In this document: positions 3,116-45,037 of the stretch, in pieces | How positions within the stretch are numbered: position 1 is the stretch's first letter | Layout: each line of letters starts with the position of its first letter | Made by a program: the position numbers and the translations under genes | Sequence record: OQ850289 | Reading direction: 5' to 3' (one strand) | DNA from: Escherichia phage vB_EcoM_ULIM3 | DNA length: 64,000 bases | Notes under the pieces: generated by a model | The model's database searches: none | The model's input: only the letters and a program-made list of their open reading frames with translations | Told to the model about the DNA's origin: nothing

Positions 3116-3157
3116 GTTGACAAAGTACTTGACAAGGTGTAGGCTTATAAATACTTA
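3116..3157 (+). promoter_or_regulatory. tandem TTGACA promoter-like block at divergent junction
   Basis: gttgacaaagtacttgacaaggtgt (3116-3140), near-identical to 44996-45020; TAnnnT -10 candidates downstream. Confidence 0.5.
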
Positions 3158-3266
3158 GAAGATAACTTAAAAGGTTCCTCTAAAAAGGCTATTTAAACAG
3201 ATATCTTTCTGGATATCTATCTTTTATCTTAAAAGCCTTTTAAGAGGTCTTATAAGAGGCATACCA

Positions 3267-3638
3267 ATGAAAAACAGAACAAACAAAGGCCAGTTTAAAA
3301 AAGGCCAGTCTGGAAACCCATCTGGAAGACCGAAAGGCTCACGTAACAAAAGTTCACTCGTAAAAGCTCAACTGACCATTGATAATTCTGCTGAGTTTGC
3401 TGCAAAGTTGTTTGAAGCGATTGTTACAAGGGACGCTGCTAAGCTTGCAGAGTTCGGGTTAAACACAGACGACGTAACCATCAAGAGCATGATTGAGGTC
3501 GGTAAAACTATCATGACTCACTCAGCAGGTGAGATGAAAGCAATTGCAGCAGACACTAAGAAGACTACTGATAACGGCGGTCAGTCTCAGACAGATAACA
3601 AACCAACGTTCTCTGCTGTTGCAACCCTCAAAAAATAA
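3267..3638 (+). CDS. hypothetical protein with N-terminal GNPxGRPKG motif (putative DNA-binding)
   Basis: 123 aa; KGQSGNPSGRPKGSRN motif that I recall from small phage DNA-binding proteins (not verified). Confidence 0.45.
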   Translation: MKNRTNKGQFKKGQSGNPSGRPKGSRNKSSLVKAQLTIDNSAEFAAKLFEAIVTRDAAKLAEFGLNTDDVTIKSMIEVGKTIMTHSAGEMKAIAADTKKTTDNGGQSQTDNKPTFSAVATLKK

Positions 3639-3650
3639 TTTTAAAAGGTG

Positions 3651-3686
3651 TTGACAGACTCTACAAAGTTGCTCTAAAGTCTGTCA
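3651..3686 (+). promoter_or_regulatory. sigma70-type promoter with overlapping 9-bp inverted repeat
   Basis: TTGACA 3651-3656; TAAAGT at 3675-3680; inverted repeat tgacagact (3652-3660) / agtctgtca (3678-3686). Confidence 0.5.
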
Positions 3687-3719
3687 CATCAAACAACAAA
3701 TGAGAGAAGAGAGTAAAAT

Positions 3720-5135
3720 ATGAGCGAATTATTTAAACATGCGCACCTTCATGCAGGTCGAACTGAAAATGGTGCTGTAAACCATACTTCATCAATGTCT
3801 GCTCTTGTAGACTTTTACAAAGCTGCTGGTTCAAGCCGTAGCAACGTAGAAATCTTACCAGACCTGTTCTGCAAAGCTTTGCGTGAGGATGTTGATGTCG
3901 CAGTTCGTATTTTGCTTCATATGCGAGATGTACGAGAAGGTATGGGTGAGCGTAAAGCCTTCAGAACTGTTTTGCTTCAAGCGATTGAAGACAAAGTTTT
4001 AGAGCCTACGCAGGTTCTTCGCATTATGGATAAGATTGCAGAACTTGGTCGTTTTGATGACTTCAAAATCTTCGTAGGTACTCGTTTCGAGACAGATGCC
4101 TTCAAACATTTAGAAGCAGCATTACTAGACCCTGCAACAGCAGGTTTGGCGGCTAAGTGGTTACCACGAGTCAAACCACGTCATAAGCAGTTTGTAAAAC
4201 GTTTCTGCAAGTTTGCCAACTTAAGTGAGAAAGAGTACCGCACACTATTGTCTGCACTATCTGATACAGTTGAGCAAAAAATCTCTGCTAATGAGTTTGG
4301 TAAGATTGACTACAGTAAGATTCCTTCACTTGCTGCTGCACGTTACCAAAAACTGTTTAACCGTAAAGATGGAGAACGCTACAAAGCTTACATCGAGTCA
4401 TTATCAAAGGGTGAGGCTAAGATTAATGCTGGTGCTGTTTACCCATACGATGTGATTAAATCTGTTAAGTATGGTAATGCAGATGTTGCTAATGAGCAGT
4501 GGAAAGCACTACCAAACTGGATGGCAGAGGGTGAGAACATTTTGTGTATGACTGATGTCTCAAGCTCAATGTCTTGGGTGAATTTCGGTTCAATCACTGC
4601 TCTTGATATTGGTGTATCTCTTGCACTGTATGTAGCAGAACGCAATACTGGTTGTTTTAAAAATGAGTTAATGGTTTATTCAACAAACCCTCACTTCATC
4701 GAACTGAGTGGTGATTTACGAAACCGTCATCGTCAGGTAATGCGTTATACTGAATATGGTTCAACTAACTTACAAGCAGCTTTTGACCGTATTCTTGAGA
4801 CAGGTAAAAGAAACAACTTGACTCAGAAAGATATGCCAAGTAAGCTTATCATCTTCTCCGATATGGAGTTCAATCAGGTTGATGGAGCTAACGGTCGTAC
4901 AAACTTTGAAGCAATTCAGAGTAAGTACAAAAAAGCTGGATATGAGATGCCACAACTGGTATTCTGGTACTTAGCAAACCGTAATGGTACTTGCGAAGTA
5001 TCTGTTAAGGATAACGGTGTAGCAATGGTATCAGGGTTCTCTCCAGCCACTTTAAAAGCTCTGCTTGGTGGTGAGAAGTTTGACCCAATCAGCGTAATGC
5101 TCAAAGCAGTAATGGTTGACCGTTATATCTGGTAA
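3720..5135 (+). CDS. vWA-domain protein with MIDAS motif; helical N-terminal domain (Ro60/TROVE-like architecture, hypothesis)
   Basis: 471 aa; perfect DxSxS MIDAS (D-V-S-S-S, nt 4549-4563) in C-terminal half; N-terminal RDVREGMGER motif; own promoter at 3651. Confidence 0.65.
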   Translation: MSELFKHAHLHAGRTENGAVNHTSSMSALVDFYKAAGSSRSNVEILPDLFCKALREDVDVAVRILLHMRDVREGMGERKAFRTVLLQAIEDKVLEPTQVLRIMDKIAELGRFDDFKIFVGTRFETDAFKHLEAALLDPATAGLAAKWLPRVKPRHKQFVKRFCKFANLSEKEYRTLLSALSDTVEQKISANEFGKIDYSKIPSLAAARYQKLFNRKDGERYKAYIESLSKGEAKINAGAVYPYDVIKSVKYGNADVANEQWKALPNWMAEGENILCMTDVSSSMSWVNFGSITALDIGVSLALYVAERNTGCFKNELMVYSTNPHFIELSGDLRNRHRQVMRYTEYGSTNLQAAFDRILETGKRNNLTQKDMPSKLIIFSDMEFNQVDGANGRTNFEAIQSKYKKAGYEMPQLVFWYLANRNGTCEVSVKDNGVAMVSGFSPATLKALLGGEKFDPISVMLKAVMVDRYIW

Positions 5136-5145
5136 AAAGTTTTAA

Positions 5146-5182
5146 AAAGGGTATTGACAATGTGTTTAATACCCTTTAATAT
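5146..5182 (+). promoter_or_regulatory. sigma70 promoter within palindrome, upstream of tRNA island
   Basis: TTGACA 5154-5159, exact 17-nt spacer, TAATAT 5177-5182; inverted repeat aagggtatt/aataccctt spans -35 and spacer. Confidence 0.7.
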
Positions 5183-5244
5183 GTTCTACATAGAAACGAA
5201 ATGAGAGCTTTTCTAAGATACTGAAAAATATTTTAAAAAAGTTC

Positions 5245-5278
5245 TTGACAACCACTAAAAAATAATGTTAAAGTGGTT
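5245..5278 (+). promoter_or_regulatory. second promoter-like element upstream of first tRNA
   Basis: TTGACA 5245-5250 preceded by TTTTAAAAAA; inverted repeat aaccact/agtggtt; weak -10. Confidence 0.4.
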
Positions 5279-5300
5279 ACATAGAGTTTGAAAAGTTTAT

Positions 5301-5377
5301 CTCTGTTTAGCTCAGCTTGGTAGAGCGTTCCGTTTGGGGCGGTAAGGCCGGAGGTTCAAGTCCTCCAACAGAGACCA
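5301..5377 (+). tRNA. tRNA-Pro (TGG)
   Basis: acceptor ctctgtt/aacagag (C1-G72, disc A, CCA encoded); anticodon loop tttgggg; T-arm ggagg-ttcaagt-cctcc; one mismatch in anticodon stem. Confidence 0.6.
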
Positions 5378-5384
5378 AATTAAT

Positions 5385-5462
5385 GTTCCAGTAGACAAAA
5401 TGGTAAAGTCACCACTCTTTCAAAGTGGATATTTGAGGGTTCAAATCCCTTCTGGAACGCCA
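5385..5462 (+). tRNA. tRNA-Glu (TTC)
   Basis: acceptor gttccag/ctggaac; anticodon stem ccact/agtgg, loop ctttcaa; T-loop ttcaaat; CCA encoded. Confidence 0.7.
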
Positions 5463-5467
5463 GTTTT

Positions 5468-5544
5468 GACAGAAGACCAATTGCAGCAAACTTAATCTTA
5501 TTCATCTGAAGGTAAATCGGACAAAGAAGAGATTTGGTCTGGTC
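5468..5544 (+). ncRNA. stem-closed element A (CAGAAGACC...GGTCTGG family)
   Basis: 7-bp helix 5474-5480/5534-5540 (AGACCAA:TTGGTCT) closing a 53-nt AT-rich interior; fills the tRNA-sized spacer between two tRNAs. Confidence 0.4.
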
Positions 5545-5553
5545 ATTAAGAAT

Positions 5554-5630
5554 TGCGGGTATAGAGAAAGGGCGTCTCACATGTCTCATTAGCATGGTAT
5601 CGGCAGGTTCGACTCCTGCACCCGCCTCCA
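5554..5630 (+). tRNA. tRNA with CAT anticodon (Met or Ile2)
   Basis: anticodon stem catgt/gcatg, loop ctcatta; T-arm gcagg-ttcgact-cctgc; acceptor 6/7 paired; CCA encoded. Confidence 0.55.
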
Positions 5631-5634
5631 AATT

Positions 5635-5704
5635 TACAGAAGACCGTTTACAGCAAAATTGAATGAAATTTTTAGCGGAAAAAATTGAAAGATACGGTCT
5701 GGTA
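5635..5704 (+). ncRNA. stem-closed element B (CAGAAGACC...GGTCTGG family)
   Basis: 7-bp helix 5641-5647/5694-5700 (AGACCGT:ACGGTCT); first 28 nt identical to element D. Confidence 0.4.
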
Positions 5705-5715
5705 ATACTAAACAT

Positions 5716-5792
5716 GGTTAGGAAGCACATAAGGTATGTGCGGTCGCCTGTTAAGCGAATGGCACAGGGTTCGAATCCCTGACTAACCGCCA
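5716..5792 (+). tRNA. tRNA-Asn (GTT)
   Basis: acceptor ggttagg/actaacc; anticodon loop ctgttaa; T-arm caggg-ttcgaat-ccctg; CCA encoded. Confidence 0.65.
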
Positions 5793-5801
5793 AATTTAAA
5801 T

Positions 5802-5889
5802 GTGTCGTTATCCCGTAGATGGTAGCGGTGGGGACTGTAAATCCCTTGTCATTGAGACTCGGTAGGTTCGACTCCTACACGGCACACCA
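5802..5889 (+). tRNA. tRNA-Tyr (GTA), long variable arm
   Basis: acceptor gtgtcgt/acggcac; anticodon stem gggga/tccct, loop ctgtaaa; ~15-nt variable arm; T-arm gtagg-ttcgact-cctac. Confidence 0.7.
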
Positions 5890-5894
5890 ATAAA

Positions 5895-5971
5895 GGCTAT
5901 GTAGTTTAACTGGAGAAAATACTCCCCTGTCACGGGAGATGATGTGAGTTCAAGTCTCATCGTAGCCGCCA
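5895..5971 (+). tRNA. tRNA-Asp (GTC)
   Basis: acceptor ggctatg/cgtagcc; anticodon stem ctccc/gggag, loop ctgtcac; CCA encoded. Confidence 0.7.
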
Positions 5972-6056
5972 AATTATAATAAGTATTTCAAAATGATGTT
6001 TTGAGAGGGCTATTTAGCCCCTCCCTTAAAGGGTTCTTACGAGTATCCTTTAAAGG

Positions 6057-6134
6057 AGCAGAAGACCAAATTCAGCAAGTTACTTAAAATTTCAAGCCAA
6101 TTTAATTTTGAAAAATTTAAAACTTGGTCTGGCT
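6057..6134 (+). ncRNA. stem-closed element C (CAGAAGACC...GGTCTGG family)
   Basis: 7-bp helix 6063-6069/6124-6130 (AGACCAA:TTGGTCT); interior AT-rich hairpin. Confidence 0.4.
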
Positions 6135-6143
6135 CAACAAATT

Positions 6144-6278
6144 TACAGAAGACCGTTTACAGCAAAACTTAAACAATCTATTTCTCGGTAAAGAAAAGGC
6201 GAAGGTTCGATTCCTTCACTCGGCAGATGTCGAGTTGGTGTAATGGCAGCACTTAAGATGATAAACAACGGTCTGGTA
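6144..6278 (+). ncRNA. stem-closed element D with internal tRNA-like module
   Basis: 8-bp helix 6150-6157/6267-6274 (AGACCGTT:AACGGTCT); interior has T-arm-like gaagg-ttcgatt-ccttc (6201-6217) and D-loop-like agttggtgtaatgg (6231-6246) but no full cloverleaf. Confidence 0.4.
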
Positions 6279-6421
6279 ATTATCTTTGTAGATAAGTTAT
6301 TAAGCTTACCTGTGAGTATGCGACCACAAAGGGTGAAAGGGTAAATTCTAGATTTAAACCCAAAAAGGCACATCGCTACAGACCTTAAGCAAGTCTGGGT
6401 AGCTTATCTACAAAGATAATT
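6278..6421 (+). repeat. 19-bp perfect inverted repeat (6278-6296 / 6403-6421) enclosing 106 nt
   Basis: aattatctttgtagataag and its exact reverse complement; lies between element D and tRNA-Lys. Confidence 0.75.
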
Positions 6422-6425
6422 TAAT

Positions 6426-6501
6426 GGAAGTGTAGCAGAATGGTGATGCGGCAGACTTTTAATCTGACAGGCGATGGGTTCGAATCCCTCCACTTCTACC
6501 A
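6426..6501 (+). tRNA. tRNA-Lys (TTT)
   Basis: acceptor ggaagtg/cacttct; anticodon loop cttttaa; T-loop ttcgaat (T-stem only 3 bp); CCA encoded. Confidence 0.6.
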
Positions 6502-6505
6502 AAAT

Positions 6506-6582
6506 GGTTCAGTCGCAGATAAGGTAATGCAAGGGTCTCATAAGCCCTATGAATGTGGGTTCGATTCCCATCTGAACCTCCA
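6506..6582 (+). tRNA. tRNA-Met (CAT)
   Basis: acceptor ggttcag/ctgaacc; anticodon stem agggt/gccct, loop ctcataa; CCA encoded. Confidence 0.7.
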
Positions 6583-6584
6583 AT

Positions 6585-37142: not shown

Positions 37143-37317
37143 TCAATGAATCTATGTTTGTAGCCCTAACCTTTTCACGTTCATCATTAAGATAATCATC
37201 AAGAGCCTTTTCAATCTGTGAATCATCTTGACAGATAACTGTAAAGACTGTAAATCCGTCTGTATCGTCAATTATCTTACCATAACCGCTTCTGGGATGT
37301 AACTTTTTAAGAGCCAT
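37105..37317 (-). CDS. hypothetical protein
   Basis: 70-aa ORF. Confidence 0.35.
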   Translation of the reverse strand: MALKKLHPRSGYGKIIDDTDGFTVFTVICQDDSQIEKALDDYLNDEREKVRATNIDSLIDTSRKRKKKDE

Positions 37318-37318
37318 A

Positions 37319-37702
37319 TCAAATACCTGTGCAGCTTCTGTTTTCTAAGAAATACTCCACACCATACATAGCTTTTTGCATTAAATCTTCTTTAAACTGG
37401 ATACGATGATTGAGCATAGCCTGTACATCAATATCATCAGGGTGCTTCTCTTTAATGTTTGCAGATTGCAGGAAGTACTCTGCAAGAACGCGATACTGGT
37501 AGTCAGTCACCTTATCAGTCATCTCTGTCAAAGACTCTTCAGAGATGGGTTTAAGTAACTCACCATTAGCTAGAGCAACACCTTTTACAATCTGGCAAGT
37601 GTCTTCTGGAACACCTGATAAGTCCACATTTGGAAGTTCTGTTGCATTGACTGGTAAATTCATTGCCATAACCATTGCAGCAGCTAATAAAATCTTTTTC
37701 AT
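37319..37702 (-). CDS. secreted/periplasmic protein (signal peptide)
   Basis: MKKILLAAAMVMAMNLPVNA signal-peptide-like N-terminus; own promoter in repeat region R1. Confidence 0.5.
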   Translation of the reverse strand: MKKILLAAAMVMAMNLPVNATELPNVDLSGVPEDTCQIVKGVALANGELLKPISEESLTEMTDKVTDYQYRVLAEYFLQSANIKEKHPDDIDVQAMLNHRIQFKEDLMQKAMYGVEYFLENRSCTGI

Positions 37703-37746
37703 AATGACCTCAAAGTTATATTAAATTTTGTATTACATTGAGTATA

Positions 37747-37775
37747 AAAATAAGCTATAACACCTGACTTGTCAA
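37747..37775 (-). promoter_or_regulatory. sigma70-type promoter (minus strand) for 37319-37702
   Basis: minus-strand TTGACA (37775-37770), 17-nt spacer, TATTTT (37752-37747); flanked by 9-bp inverted repeat taagctata/tatagctta. Confidence 0.5.
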
Positions 37776-38140
37776 CAGATTTTATAGCTTATTTGGCAGA
37801 TTTTTTATAAGGCTACTGCCATCCTTCCATACCAAACCTCACCTGACCTCGCCTAACCCTACCTTACTCCACCATACAGCACCTTATTAAAACACCCTGT
37901 TTAAAGACCTTTTAAAAAGGTAAGTCTCATTTTAATGTAGCTGAGACTAACTACCCATACCTCACCCTACCAGACCCTACCGAACATCACTTAAAAACCC
38001 TCTTAGAAGACTCTTAAGTGATGTAATCGAATTTTAATGTAGCTCCGATTAACTACCCATACCTCACCTCACCCAACCATACCATGCCTTGCCAGACCGC
38101 ACCTTACCTCATTAAAAGACCCTCTTAAAAGACCTTTTAA

Positions 38141-38166
38141 AAAGGAGCCTCCGAAGAGGCTACCTA
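38141..38166 (-). terminator. intrinsic terminator (minus strand) after 38173-38613
   Basis: minus-strand ggtagcctc-ttcg-gaggct(a)cc hairpin followed by TTTTT. Confidence 0.7.
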
Positions 38167-38172
38167 GTCAAC

Positions 38173-38613
38173 TTAGAAAGGTTTTCTACGTTGCTTGTTA
38201 ATGTTAGCTTTCATAGCAGCTAAATGGTTTTGCTGTTCAATCAGTCGTGAACGTTCTTGATGACTAAGCGCCATAGTGTTCACATTCTCAATTGCTTGAG
38301 TGGCTTGCTTTAAAGCTCGACCAATCTTACCAGACATTTTGCGTTTTGCAATAGTTGCTTGATGCTTAGGTTCAACCACACGATAACCAACACCCATTGA
38401 AGCAACCAGATAAATCTTCTCTTCTTTAAGAAGCTTTTCAATAAACTTCTCAAGTCGGTTTAGACGTGTAAGTGCATAAGCCTTCATTTCATCTTCGTAC
38501 TTAACAATGTCACCTTGATAAGTTGGCTTCACAATACCTAAGAAGGTGTCCATCTCGGAATGTGATACAGTGTCGCCGTAACTAAACTTTGCTGCTAATG
38601 CTTTTGTATTCAT
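38173..38613 (-). CDS. hypothetical protein (cassette gene 2)
   Basis: 146-aa ORF, basic C-terminus. Confidence 0.5.
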   Translation of the reverse strand: MNTKALAAKFSYGDTVSHSEMDTFLGIVKPTYQGDIVKYEDEMKAYALTRLNRLEKFIEKLLKEEKIYLVASMGVGYRVVEPKHQATIAKRKMSGKIGRALKQATQAIENVNTMALSHQERSRLIEQQNHLAAMKANINKQRRKPF

Positions 38614-38615
38614 AA

Positions 38616-39638
<1,023 letters not shown>

Positions 39639-40739
39639 TTACTCATAATCCCTAATAACTAACCCAACAGGGAACTGTAAAGACCCCTTACGAGTCATCT
39701 TCTGGAACTGAACCGTTAAAGGCTTCCCGATAAACTCTTCAGGATGCTCAGCCAGATACTGCTTTTTCTCATGAGTGGTTTTCCATGAGACATCTACAAA
39801 GACGTTAGGAAGAGTCTCTACAACGAACTTACCATGACCACGTTTATCAGTCTTTACACCAGTTACTTTAAACTCTTCAGTGTGCATCTTCTTGTGCTTA
39901 ATCAAGAAGTATGAACGGTGACAACACTCATAGAAGGAGTCTTCAGAGATTGAACGGTACATTGCACCTTCAAACTTAGCTTCAACCCACTTATCATGAG
40001 CTTCATCAAATTCTTCCCAAGAATTTACACGGATAGTCTGCACAGGAACAACTCTACAGGTATCCCCAAGCTCAACAATAGGTGAGTTATCAATAACTTC
40101 ACGACGCTCAGGCCAAGATTTTGAATTGTCACAGATATCATACCAGTAGAATTTAAGAAGGTGACGGTCTGGATTGTCAGCATTCTTAATCATAGACACA
40201 ATATCTTCTAAGTCCCAACCATGAGCATAAATCTCTCCATCAAAGTCTTCAACTTGCGGATGTAATTTAAGCAACAAAAGTAAGTCTGGTATTAGTTCTG
40301 CTGGAACGTTGTAAACAGTATTCTCACGAGAATAAGCTGTGAAACCGACTGAATCAGCATCTCTTGAAATTCTACAACGTACACCATCCAGTTTCGGTTG
40401 AGCATCAGCAGGGAACTTCAGATACTTTGCATGACTAACCTTTGCAGCATCATGAGCAAGCTGTACACCTACCTTCTCAGTATTCTGTGCAGACTCTTTT
40501 GTGTAAGCATACCCTTTACGGTCAACTTGCTTTTTATACTTAGCAGCAACTTCAAAGAGAGCTTGCTGTTCAGCATTACGCTCATTCTTTTTACCGATGT
40601 TTTTAGGTTCTGCTGTATACTCTTCAAACATCATCTTGCCATTTTCTTTGCCATAGGTTGTAATAACCTTGTCACCTACAGCAGTACATGACCAGATGTT
40701 AAAAGAGCCATCTTTATTTTGTTTGTACAGTATTGTCAT
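39639..40739 (-). CDS. ATP-dependent DNA ligase
   Basis: KLDGVRC motif I (adenylation lysine); start set at ATG 40739 with AGGAA RBS. Confidence 0.8.
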   Translation of the reverse strand: MTILYKQNKDGSFNIWSCTAVGDKVITTYGKENGKMMFEEYTAEPKNIGKKNERNAEQQALFEVAAKYKKQVDRKGYAYTKESAQNTEKVGVQLAHDAAKVSHAKYLKFPADAQPKLDGVRCRISRDADSVGFTAYSRENTVYNVPAELIPDLLLLLKLHPQVEDFDGEIYAHGWDLEDIVSMIKNADNPDRHLLKFYWYDICDNSKSWPERREVIDNSPIVELGDTCRVVPVQTIRVNSWEEFDEAHDKWVEAKFEGAMYRSISEDSFYECCHRSYFLIKHKKMHTEEFKVTGVKTDKRGHGKFVVETLPNVFVDVSWKTTHEKKQYLAEHPEEFIGKPLTVQFQKMTRKGSLQFPVGLVIRDYE

Positions 40740-44995: not shown

Positions 44996-45037
44996 GTTGA
45001 CAATGTACTTGACAAGGTGTTAATCTTTGCGAAGTGG
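44996..45037 (+). promoter_or_regulatory. tandem TTGACA promoter-like block at divergent junction
   Basis: gttgacaatgtacttgacaaggtgt (44996-45020); upstream of first plus-strand replication-block gene. Confidence 0.5.

Follow-up and report, generated by a model that had tools for sequence, protein, structure and literature searches.

The DNA analysed here, a stretch of 64,000 nucleotides from Escherichia phage vB_EcoM_ULIM3 (OQ850289; hereafter the window), belongs to a Felixounavirus (a Felix O1-like myovirus of the Ounavirinae). Genes are read from the plus strand between ~3.2 and 34.2 kb and from the minus strand between 34.2 and 45 kb, and ARAGORN placed 26 tRNA genes on the plus strand between 5301 and 10245; the segment 5300-10300 matched 313 phage records (top identity 97.9%). 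We refer to 5.3-10.2 kb as the tRNA/structured-RNA array and to 37.7-39.6 kb as the early-gene leaders. The published account of the Felix O1 genome covers terminators, promoters and direct repeats, and gives both the passage of transcription past many terminators and temporal regulation as unknown (PMC3185647). The hairpins reported below are not described there (PMC3185647), and a literature search on Felixounavirus hairpins, transcriptomes and tmRNA found nothing relevant.

We found the motif GGGTTCTTACGAG exactly, and only, at 6031-6043 and 9139-9151; a first-pass annotation of the sequence had placed the hairpins correctly. When up to three mismatches were allowed, the window held 30 matches vs. 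10.0 ± 2.6 expected, most of the matches with two or three mismatches being noise; the motif is real and occurs above chance. Related copies had also been proposed at 6873-6901, 7484-7548, 37995-38013 and 39545-39563, and these do lie in the hairpins that we call C, D, R1 and R2. Together with further minus-strand copies found by a hairpin scan (at 38112, 39412, 39245 and 37887), ~11 related copies were recognised, all of them non-coding and all on the transcribed strand; five lie on the plus strand (3228, 6021, 6868, 7482 and 9136) and six on the minus strand (37887-39574):

3228-3256, plus strand: degenerate family member (model match) in the 5' UTR of the ORF 3267-3638
6021-6058, plus strand: hairpin A (fold, model match at 6026-6053, orthologues)
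6868-6902, plus strand: hairpin C (fold, model seed, position before tRNA-Arg(tct))
7482-7563, plus strand: hairpin D (fold, orthologues, weak model match)
9136-9159, plus strand: hairpin B (fold, model match, orthologues)
37887-37915, minus strand: degenerate R-b hairpin with one G·G mismatch (model 44 bits)
37984-38024, minus strand: R1 hairpin, ACAUCACUUAAGAGUCUUC-UAA-GAGGGUUUUUAAGUGAUGU, 19 bp with 4 G·U
38112-38140, minus strand: R-b hairpin, UUAAAAGGUCUUU-UAA-GAGGGUCUUUUAA (model 49.1 bits)
39245-39272, minus strand: Rc hairpin, UAAAGAGUCUUC-UGUU-GAGGGUUCUUUA (z -3.3)
39412-39440, minus strand: R-b hairpin, UUAAAGGGUCUU-UAAAC-AGGGUCUUUUAA (model 47.6 bits)
39534-39574, minus strand: R2 hairpin, core CUUAAGAGUCUUU-GAA-AAGGGUUUUUAAG with an outer CAUC/GAUG extension

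The motif had been taken for a conserved loop carried on variable stems, an anatomy that fails: once G·U pairs are allowed, the so-called loop is mostly stem, and among the copies at 38-39.6 kb it is the stems that are conserved and the loops that vary (taa, gaa, gga, aaa, taag, taaac and tgtt). The motif is thus an RNA structure and not a conserved loop, namely the apical part of stem-loops that make up one family of sense-strand RNA structures (stems of 10-22 bp with abundant A-U and G·U pairs, many with UACG or UAA loops) and border tRNA, small-RNA and early-gene transcripts. The idea of a shared RNA-level signal survives, as the copies lie on the sense strand of transcribed non-coding spacers in both regions and carry substitutions that preserve pairing; its more specific form, a protein site recognised through the loop, is left without the proposed loop/stem anatomy, and because the ‘loop’ pairs almost completely, the argument for loop-specific recognition falls away.

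Within the array, hairpin A has the core TTAAAGGGTTCT-tacg-AGTATCCTTTAA (12 positions, one of them a U·U mismatch) and an extra 4-bp outer stem, reading in full CUCC-c-UUAAAGGGU-u-CU-UACG-AG-u-AUCCUUUAA-a-GGAG; a GC-rich hairpin (6007-6020) adjoins its 5' side, and its 3' end falls at the start of the repeated element E3 (6058-6137). Hairpin B, with the core TAAGGGTTCT-tacg-AGAGTCCTTA in DNA and UAAGGGUUCU-UACG-AGAGUCCUUA in RNA (10 bp, 2 G·U), occupies the 31-nt spacer between tRNA-Gln(ctg) and tRNA-His(gtg), beginning 4 nt after the former and ending 3 nt before the latter. Hairpin C, AUCUUUAAGGGCUUUC-UAA-GAGAGUCUUUAAAGAU, is a perfect 16-bp helix with 3 G·U pairs; it adjoins a GC-rich hairpin (6841-6867), forms the 3'-terminal helix of a tmRNA-like RNA (6704-6906) and ends 4 nt before tRNA-Arg(tct). 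Hairpin D, which has GGGCTTCTAAG in common with C, pairs 7482-7503 with 7542-7563 in an outer stem of 22 bp (3-4 of them G·U) that encloses ~38 nt; a terminator-like hairpin (7468-7489) overlaps the 5' arm of D with its own 3' arm and T-tract, and D ends 5 nt before tRNA-Leu(tag). Three of the four array hairpins (B, C and D) thus stop 3-5 nt short of a tRNA 5' end, so that the original description of the motif as following tRNA genes was imprecise; hairpin A does follow one, 49 nt past tRNA-Asp, and stands directly before a non-tRNA structured element. The copy at 3228-3256 lies directly before the Shine-Dalgarno sequence of its ORF with 11 of 13 positions paired, and is conserved in 19 relatives with equal score.

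Each family hairpin in the array also has a structure on its 5' side (GC-rich hairpins for A and C, the terminator-like hairpin for D, a tRNA for B). The remaining long array spacers likewise hold closed structures, ending 4-11 nt before the next tRNA, so that the array looks like a series of compact RNA modules with short AU-rich linkers between them. Comparable placements are seen in related loci, where 10 nt separate a copy in Erwinia phage Hena2 (Kolesnikvirus) from the tRNA-Leu(caa) downstream of it and an unrelated hairpin in L020 ends 6 nt before tRNA-Ser.

On the minus strand, R1 and R2 belong to the family as had been proposed; the minus strand is the sense strand there, a point on which the proposal was imprecise. 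Hairpins C and R1 agree at 23 of their 29 aligned positions. The R2 helix measures 13 bp or longer and lies within a long 5' UTR downstream of a promoter (39631-39604), and the R-b and Rc stems measure 12-13 bp and 12 bp, respectively. The R-b copy at 38112-38140 begins inside the U-tract of a canonical terminator (38161-38146), the two others (39412-39440 and 37887-37915) start in the U-tract after a conserved-loop hairpin, and Rc is found ~45 nt upstream of the start codon of a gene that ends at 39218. The copies at 38-39.6 kb adjoin no recognisable processing site.

Folding energies support several of these structures and, for some, the strand. Hairpin C folds at -17.4 kcal/mol in the sense orientation (z -5.1) vs. 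-5.7 in the antisense, and R1 at -20.0 kcal/mol on the minus, sense strand (z -5.9) vs. -11.3 on the plus strand, a difference that arises because G·U wobbles turn into A·C mismatches on the other strand; hairpin D reaches -36.1 kcal/mol (z -4.5). Hairpin B (-8 kcal/mol, z -1.4) is not significant by folding energy alone. For A and B the sense and antisense strands fold about equally well, without asymmetry in folding energy, and the case for these two hairpins consequently rests on comparative evidence.

We built a covariance model from C and the minus-strand copies, leaving out A, B and Rc, and searched the window with filters off. The best non-seed match was Rc (25.4 bits, E 0.009), followed by 3228-3256 (22.7 bits, E 0.035), A (at 6026-6053; 19.8 bits, E 0.16) and B (17.7 bits, E 0.48), and every window match with E < 1 was on the sense strand; the match to D was weak (13.1 bits). 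In 50 related sources (533 kb) the model gave 192 matches, and every one above 17.3 bits was on the sense strand. A whole-genome scan of a close relative, PV700625, placed copies in the same three regions only. From model score alone the membership of A and B in the R/C family is weak, and it is strengthened by Hena2, in which the position aligned with hairpin C is occupied by a B-type hairpin (AAAGGTTCT-tacg-AGAGTCTTT), following the same conserved upstream RNA and sharing the 3' arm GAGAGTCTTT.

Comparison among relatives showed that pairing is what is kept. One pair of hairpin A passes from G-C through G·U to A-U in its orthologues; hairpin B, present in 21/21 Felixounavirus/Suspvirus loci, changes in its stem from G·U to A-U only, twice independently; in hairpin C the change is from G-C to G·U, joined in Suspvirus by changes from C-G to U·G and from G·U to G-C; and the orthologues of hairpin D (L018/L020 and phiSUSP1-like phages) differ at many positions with every pair kept, including a change from U-A to G-C. 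In a model-derived alignment of 40 distinct sequences, 96.1% of the positions were paired and 5/13 pairs had changed on both sides, and the covariation score was 0.373 vs. 0.223 ± 0.014 for shuffled controls (0/500 reached it) and ≤0.21 when the partners were slid. This alignment was fitted to the model structure and its sequences are related paralogues and orthologues; the independent orthologue comparisons agree with its result. Wobble and Watson-Crick pairs swap in both directions among relatives, which fits selection for pairing and not for a fixed sequence. In four relatives, moreover, the site of hairpin C holds a different, larger hairpin (AACAUUcUAAAGGGUA...UACCCUUUAaAAUGUU), so that structure is kept where sequence has been replaced. 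With pairing maintained by compensatory and wobble substitutions in a strand-specific manner, the family has the hallmarks of a structured RNA.

The same comparisons bear on whether the repeats could act as DNA, that is, as 12-13-bp tandem direct repeats or AT-rich palindromes serving as protein sites, promoter UP elements or cassette recombination junctions. Tandem Repeats Finder does read the R-b copies as a 12-13-nt unit repeated 2.4-2.8 times (the copy at 38112-38140 as a 12-nt direct repeat of 2.8 copies), but the covarying positions are antiparallel, in hairpin register, and not parallel, and slid controls collapse; we therefore favour a hairpin over a tandem direct repeat as the primary nature of these copies. 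The G·U pairs, too, would be A·C mismatches on the complementary strand. At hairpin C, breaks in homology between relatives fall precisely on its edges; across the 21 related tRNA regions compared, however, the breakpoints lie mostly at tRNA borders, only the edges of C coincide, and hairpins as breakpoints in general were rejected. At the early-gene leaders the intergenic repeats that contain R1 and R2 lie on either side of a two-gene cassette (38173-39638) that roughly half of the relatives lack, and in L022 the 3' arm of an 18-bp hairpin (5720-5759) runs into an A/T-rich stretch just upstream of a TTGACA promoter; most copies nevertheless have no promoter beside them (none next to A, B, C, D or most R copies in a consensus scan of 5100-10400 and 37200-39800). 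We consider a DNA-level signal highly improbable. These arrangements also recall the PeSL (promoter-early stem-loop) cassettes of T4-type phages, reportedly described by Arbiol et al. in 2010, in that repeated intergenic stem-loops border variable cassettes, R1 and R2 flanking an indel cassette and the L022 hairpin preceding a promoter. They differ from PeSL cassettes in that most copies here lack an adjacent promoter and the array copies adjoin tRNAs and not ORF cassettes.

Could the conserved stem instead be a specific site for one RNA-binding protein or endoribonuclease, of phage or host, that reads its G·U pairs and coordinates the regulation or processing of the RNAs bearing it? Several observations point that way. 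The paralogues conserve the sequence of the stem and not just its pairing; the apex GGUUCUUACGAGAGUC is identical in two genera (Felixounavirus B and the Kolesnikvirus copy) amid diverged surrounding RNA; particular wobbles persist, G8·U53 in 38/40 sequences and U13·G50 in 35/40; and the copies are restricted to three genome regions. The identity of the apex together with the persistent G8·U53 wobble is a hint of sequence-specific recognition over generic structure. A gene annotated as RNA-binding (PHROG 850; Pfam DUF2828 + DUF7788) lies just upstream of the array at 3720-5135 and is a candidate by position; this ORF had no match in a PDB sequence search and none in NCBIfam. On the other hand, the sequences compared are close paralogues and orthologues, so their common sequence may reflect ancestry or gene conversion, changes from wobble to Watson-Crick pairs are tolerated at several positions, the loops differ between subtypes, and the C site accepts a quite different hairpin in some phages. 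We regard such a site as the main rival to the reading we prefer, and as a rather unlikely one.

Searching IMG/VR (2.9 million viral contigs) for exact copies of the 14-mer GGTTCTTACGAGAG gave at least 120 matches, most of those listed being chance. In Erwinia jumbo phages, a Hafnia phage and a few others the 14-mer stands at the apex of intergenic hairpins whose outer stems differ, which may represent convergence or chance, UNCG hairpins being common.

Reading the hairpins as weak intrinsic terminators, attenuators or pause sites that tune downstream transcription has some precedent, as an R1-type hairpin is labelled a Rho-independent terminator in the GenBank record of phage ASO1B (a TransTermHP/WebGeSTer prediction). 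Like intrinsic terminators, these are sense-strand stem-loops at the end of a transcribed unit, and some overlap a genuine terminator or come just after one. Hairpin D and a terminator-like hairpin overlap, and the R-b/R-a stems have an A-tract and a U-tract within them (AAAAGG...CUUUUAA), a trait of bidirectional terminators. We scanned 5100-10400 and 37200-39800 for G+C-rich stems followed within 0-2 nt by a T-run (≥5/8); no family copy was flagged, whereas the canonical terminator at 38161-38146 was. The tails are AGCAGAAG (A, past the outer stem), AAATGTGG (B), TAATGCAC (C) and TTAATGGG (D), and with no U-tract after any stem we rejected termination as the function of the family, a reading that we hold to be very unlikely. 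The upper stems are weak, rich in G·U and A-U with few G-C pairs, and B, C and D lie a few nt before tRNAs into which transcription must continue. The lack of a T-run fits elements that let transcription reach the downstream tRNAs.

Several other identities were tried and set aside. A tRNA remnant or anticodon-loop mimic was suggested by CUUCUAA, CUUUUAA and CUUACGA, which resemble Arg, Lys and Val loops, but folding with a 7-nt loop breaks the closing pairs; an RNase P minihelix substrate does not suit stems without a following CCA; and a match of hairpin D to a plant miRNA precursor was a generic long-hairpin match obtained at a permissive E-value (32.7 bits vs. a threshold of 52). Rfam held no family for the hairpins at gathering or permissive thresholds, and only tRNAs passed gathering.

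Short repeated stem-loops between genes are known from other systems, and each comparison is partial. The intercistronic C(UUCG)G hairpins of phage T4, which Tuerk et al. are said to have described in 1988 and which are thought to stabilise or punctuate RNA, are likewise short stem-loops on the sense strand between genes, with a UNCG-type loop (UACG in A, B and Hena2). Here, however, the UACG loop is closed by U-A and not by C-G, which sets these hairpins apart from the T4 type; the stems are weak and A-U/G·U-rich, the C, D and R types have UAA or other loops, and the copies are paralogous, with stem sequence in common. REP/BIME palindromes act as 3' stabilisers inside operons, and the family resembles them as imperfect palindromes repeated in transcribed spacers without terminator U-tracts that would protect upstream RNA from 3' exonucleases; it differs in comprising ~11 copies in three regions of a phage genome without a REP consensus or a known associated RAYT transposase, and the PV700625 scan, with its same three regions only, gave no sign of REP/MITE-like dispersal.

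The early region of phage T7 carries RNase III sites of roughly at least 20 bp with an internal loop, and hairpins that separate modules between genes are the classical phage use of this enzyme. The present hairpins share with them an intergenic, sense-strand position, the separation of polycistronic modules and the protective stem-loops that would be left at RNA ends, and C (16 bp), R1 (19 bp) and D (at least 22 bp) are long, nearly perfect duplexes in transcribed spacers. The RNase III dimer accommodates ~22 bp of dsRNA, or two helical turns (PMC6212723). D and R1 come close to this length and C has 16 bp; most copies have 10-16 bp, and B (10 bp), A (12-15, with mismatches), R-b (12-13) and Rc (12) fall far below it. 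That the family consists of RNase III sites cutting polycistronic transcripts, as in T7, is in our judgement unlikely.

We reasoned that the family is most likely an ordinary form of processing or stability punctuation, and the account that we tentatively prefer is that of boundary hairpins that do not terminate transcription and that, once endonucleases have processed the transcript, would cap and insulate the resulting RNAs. RNA polymerase, which hairpins lacking a U-tract would not stop, would transcribe through them in the RNA array and the early-gene leaders; endonucleases would then part the modules, RNase P by cutting at the 5' end of the following tRNA (for B, C and D, 3-5 nt past the hairpin) and RNase E-type enzymes by cutting in the AU-rich linkers. 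A hairpin would thereby be left as the 3'- or 5'-terminal structure of the neighbouring RNA, where it could block 3'-to-5' exonucleases and keep neighbouring folds from interfering. The structures, their strand and conservation and their places in the transcripts are observed, and from these we infer the processing steps and the stabilising effect. Some observations sit awkwardly with boundary hairpins: B, in the 3' trailer of tRNA-Gln, should hinder exonucleolytic trimming, and the stems are weak as exonuclease barriers, as the folding energy of B illustrates. Also against this account are the copies at 38-39.6 kb, which have no recognisable processing site beside them, and the identical apex and persistent G8·U53 wobble noted above. 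In Hena2, tRNA-Leu is followed by tRNA-His across a 3-nt spacer with no hairpin, so B is not needed for tRNA-His. Judged by sequence, the element may be a processing site, a protein-binding site or a mere stabilising structure.

A bolder proposal, to which we give about as little credit as to the RNase III sites, is that the hairpin is a dedicated handle common to the stable RNAs and early leaders of the phage, including the tmRNA-like RNA and the array spacers, by which one phage or host factor would mature, stabilise or deliver them together, with the conserved G·U-containing stem as the recognition code.

The RNA that ends in hairpin C is an observation in its own right, and its tag frame is more interesting than the hairpin motif. 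It is ~200 nt long (6704-6906, plus strand) with hairpin C as its last helix, would start from a strong predicted promoter (6675-6703), and aligns to the tmRNA consensus at the resume region. Its tag frame, AAAAUAAAU-GCA AAC GAC AAU GUU UUU CUG GCA GUA GCU UGA UAG, encodes ANDNVFLAVA followed by two stops, and has the features by which we recognised a tmRNA mRNA-like domain, namely a GCA resume codon in an A-rich context, a short tag with a hydrophobic end and stops in helix 5. The frame is conserved in Suspvirus and Kolesnikvirus, with four variants across three genera that differ mainly by synonymous or stop-to-stop changes; the stop codons lie in a predicted hairpin loop, and a downstream helix covaries. 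A tRNA-like domain (G3·U70 acceptor, T-arm, CCA) could not be recognised in 6704-6906, where no acceptor strand is apparent at the 5' end; ARAGORN called no tmRNA for it, and it scored below the Rfam threshold of 47 (RF00023 16.1 bits, RF04321 32.5 bits). In some relatives a separate tRNA-like element, D-arm-less and with G3·U70, comes just downstream of the tmRNA-like RNA; the window lacks this element. In a survey of 543 RefSeq bacterial viruses, ssrA was found in eight mycobacteriophages only, and Bacillus phage G and mycobacteriophage DS6A were named as carriers outside that set (PMC4131195).

Felix O1-like phages are used in Salmonella typing and in phage therapy, and their map of transcription and RNA processing is poorly understood. 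To this map the hairpins add a conserved, previously undescribed punctuation element, useful as a landmark that marks the ends of the non-tRNA RNAs in the array, and it was by tracing hairpin C that the conserved RNA with a tmRNA-like tag frame was exposed. If a specific factor turned out to recognise the hairpins, they would open a way into a phage-specific RNA maturation pathway.

We found that the tRNA array (+ strand, 5.3-10.2 kb) contains a conserved RNA, transcribed from its own promoter, whose last helix is hairpin C (6868-6902), a member of the recurrent stem-loop family, and which has counterparts in other phages:

6704-6906, + strand: conserved tmRNA-like non-coding RNA of ~200 nt, promoter at 6675-6703
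L059 4515-4745, L060 about 3990-4200 and L020 about 3630-3860: counterparts of this RNA

This RNA holds a reading frame resembling the mRNA-like domain of tmRNA, AAAAUAAAU-GCA AAC GAC AAU GUU UUU CUG GCA GUA GCU UGA UAG, that encodes the tag ANDNVFLAVA followed by two stops, and the stop codons lie in the loop of a predicted hairpin. Four variants of the tag RNA occur across Felixounavirus, Suspvirus and Kolesnikvirus (tags include ANDAQFLAVA and ANDNAFLAVA, each likewise ending in two stops); the changes among them are mostly synonymous or stop-to-stop, and one helix covaries (UGAGG/CCUCA to UAGGG/CCCUA). No tRNA-like domain was found when one was looked for within 6704-6906, ARAGORN made no call there, and the Rfam scores for tmRNA (16 bits) and tmRNA_permuted (32.5 bits) both fell below the threshold of 47; the RNA is also absent from the phage ssrA list in PMC4131195. 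This could be a tmRNA analogue, either MLD-only or split.

After hairpin C, many relatives have a tRNA-like element in place of tRNA-Arg(tct); the window lacks this element:

L001 4576-4657: D-arm-less tRNA-like element, the same in L003, L004, L005, L007, L009, L011, L015 and L016

Its acceptor stem (CGGGGCG/CGCCUCG, with G3·U70 and A73-CCA) carries alanine identity elements, its anticodon loop contains UCU, and its variable arm is long. The Rfam tRNA model, its D-arm deleted in the alignment, gives it 31.7 bits, and it is not among the ARAGORN calls. In L007 the element follows an alternative, larger hairpin at the C site.

Further structured elements, and two protein-coding genes, lie in or next to the array:

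3720-5135, + strand: ORF directly 5' of the array, with DUF2828 and DUF7788 (PHROG 850, 'RNA-binding protein')
5466-5548, 5636-5712, 6058-6137 and 6143-6278, + strand: four repeated elements
6278-6421, + strand: large structured RNA, a 24-bp closing stem (UUAUCUUUGUAGAUAAG...) around a ~95-nt multibranch
7028-7051, + strand: motif GGAGGTGGTCTGTATCTC, shared with Erwinia phage Hena2
7128-7211, + strand: uncalled tRNA-like element downstream of this motif
8328-8885, + strand: DUF7338 membrane-protein gene embedded in the array

In all four repeated elements the two ends are conserved (CAGAAGACCnnTTnCAGCAA ... nnGGTCTGG) and pair as a covarying closing stem. The fourth (6143-6278) encloses a circularly permuted tRNA-like domain made up of T-arm, loop-closed acceptor stem and D-arm, and in this respect resembles the YrlA-type bacterial Y RNAs (PMC4201824), but Rfam returned no match. 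The product of the ORF at 3720-5135 has a MIDAS-like motif (DVSSS), and a PDB sequence search with it gave no match. For the large structured RNA the folding energy is -48.3 kcal/mol (z -6.3), and it stops 4 nt short of tRNA-Lys. The tRNA-like element at 7128-7211 combines an acceptor stem (AUGGGAC/GUCCCAU), discriminator G, CCA and a T-loop (UUCAACU) with an odd anticodon region. Hena2 also has an RNA of ~175 nt (L059 4340-4510). Its closing stem is acceptor-like and adjoins a T-arm, and its 5' end (GGGUGAUUCUG) resembles that of tmRNA. Homologues of the DUF7338 gene are 58-79% identical and lie on contigs of 121-180 kb (L023-L031), lengths that would be typical for T5-like and T4-like phages.

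The 14-mer GGTTCTTACGAGAG was also found in unrelated phages:

L067, L072, L094 and others: Erwinia jumbo phages of about 265 kb
L170, L157, L118 and L113: Hafnia phage Meifeng-like
L071; L081: further carriers

Among the matches listed, it sits at the apex of intergenic hairpins of 8-13 bp whose outer stems are unrelated, placed after a stop codon and before the next ribosome-binding site, and the identified carriers are phages of Enterobacterales hosts.

Two promoters, sharing a doubled -35 motif (TTGACAnnGTACTTGACAAGGTG), mark the window's two points of transcription divergence:

3117-3150 and 44998-45030, + strand: promoter pair

Within the early-gene leader region, the family hairpins R1 (37984-38024) and R2 (39534-39574) are accompanied by the following:

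37829-37883, 37957-37981, 38059-38108, 39314-39373 and 39482-39531, minus strand: GGY triplet arrays
37922-37949, 38024-38051 and 39448-39473, minus strand: hairpins with the conserved loop AGCUACAUUAAAAU
38173-39638: cassette of two genes, with the repeated R1/R2 intergenic regions at its borders

The GGY arrays, which alternate with family hairpins, comprise 5-11 triplets at an exact 5-nt spacing (GGUNN repeats, e.g. GGUAU x6), and neither strand of the 64-kb window has any other such run. Such spacing is reminiscent of the RNA sites, built of triplet repeats, of TRAP-like ring proteins; on the sense strand, which is G-rich, R-loops or two-tetrad quadruplexes could form more readily. The loop AGCUACAUUAAAAU sits on differing stems (AGUCUCA/UGAGACU and UAAUCG/CGAUUA), and CCUUUUU follows two of the three hairpins. 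Finally, the cassette is absent in about half of the related phages (their matches span only about 50-60% of the query), and this absence, together with the R1/R2 repeats at its borders, suggests that the cassette has been gained or lost via recombination between the repeats.
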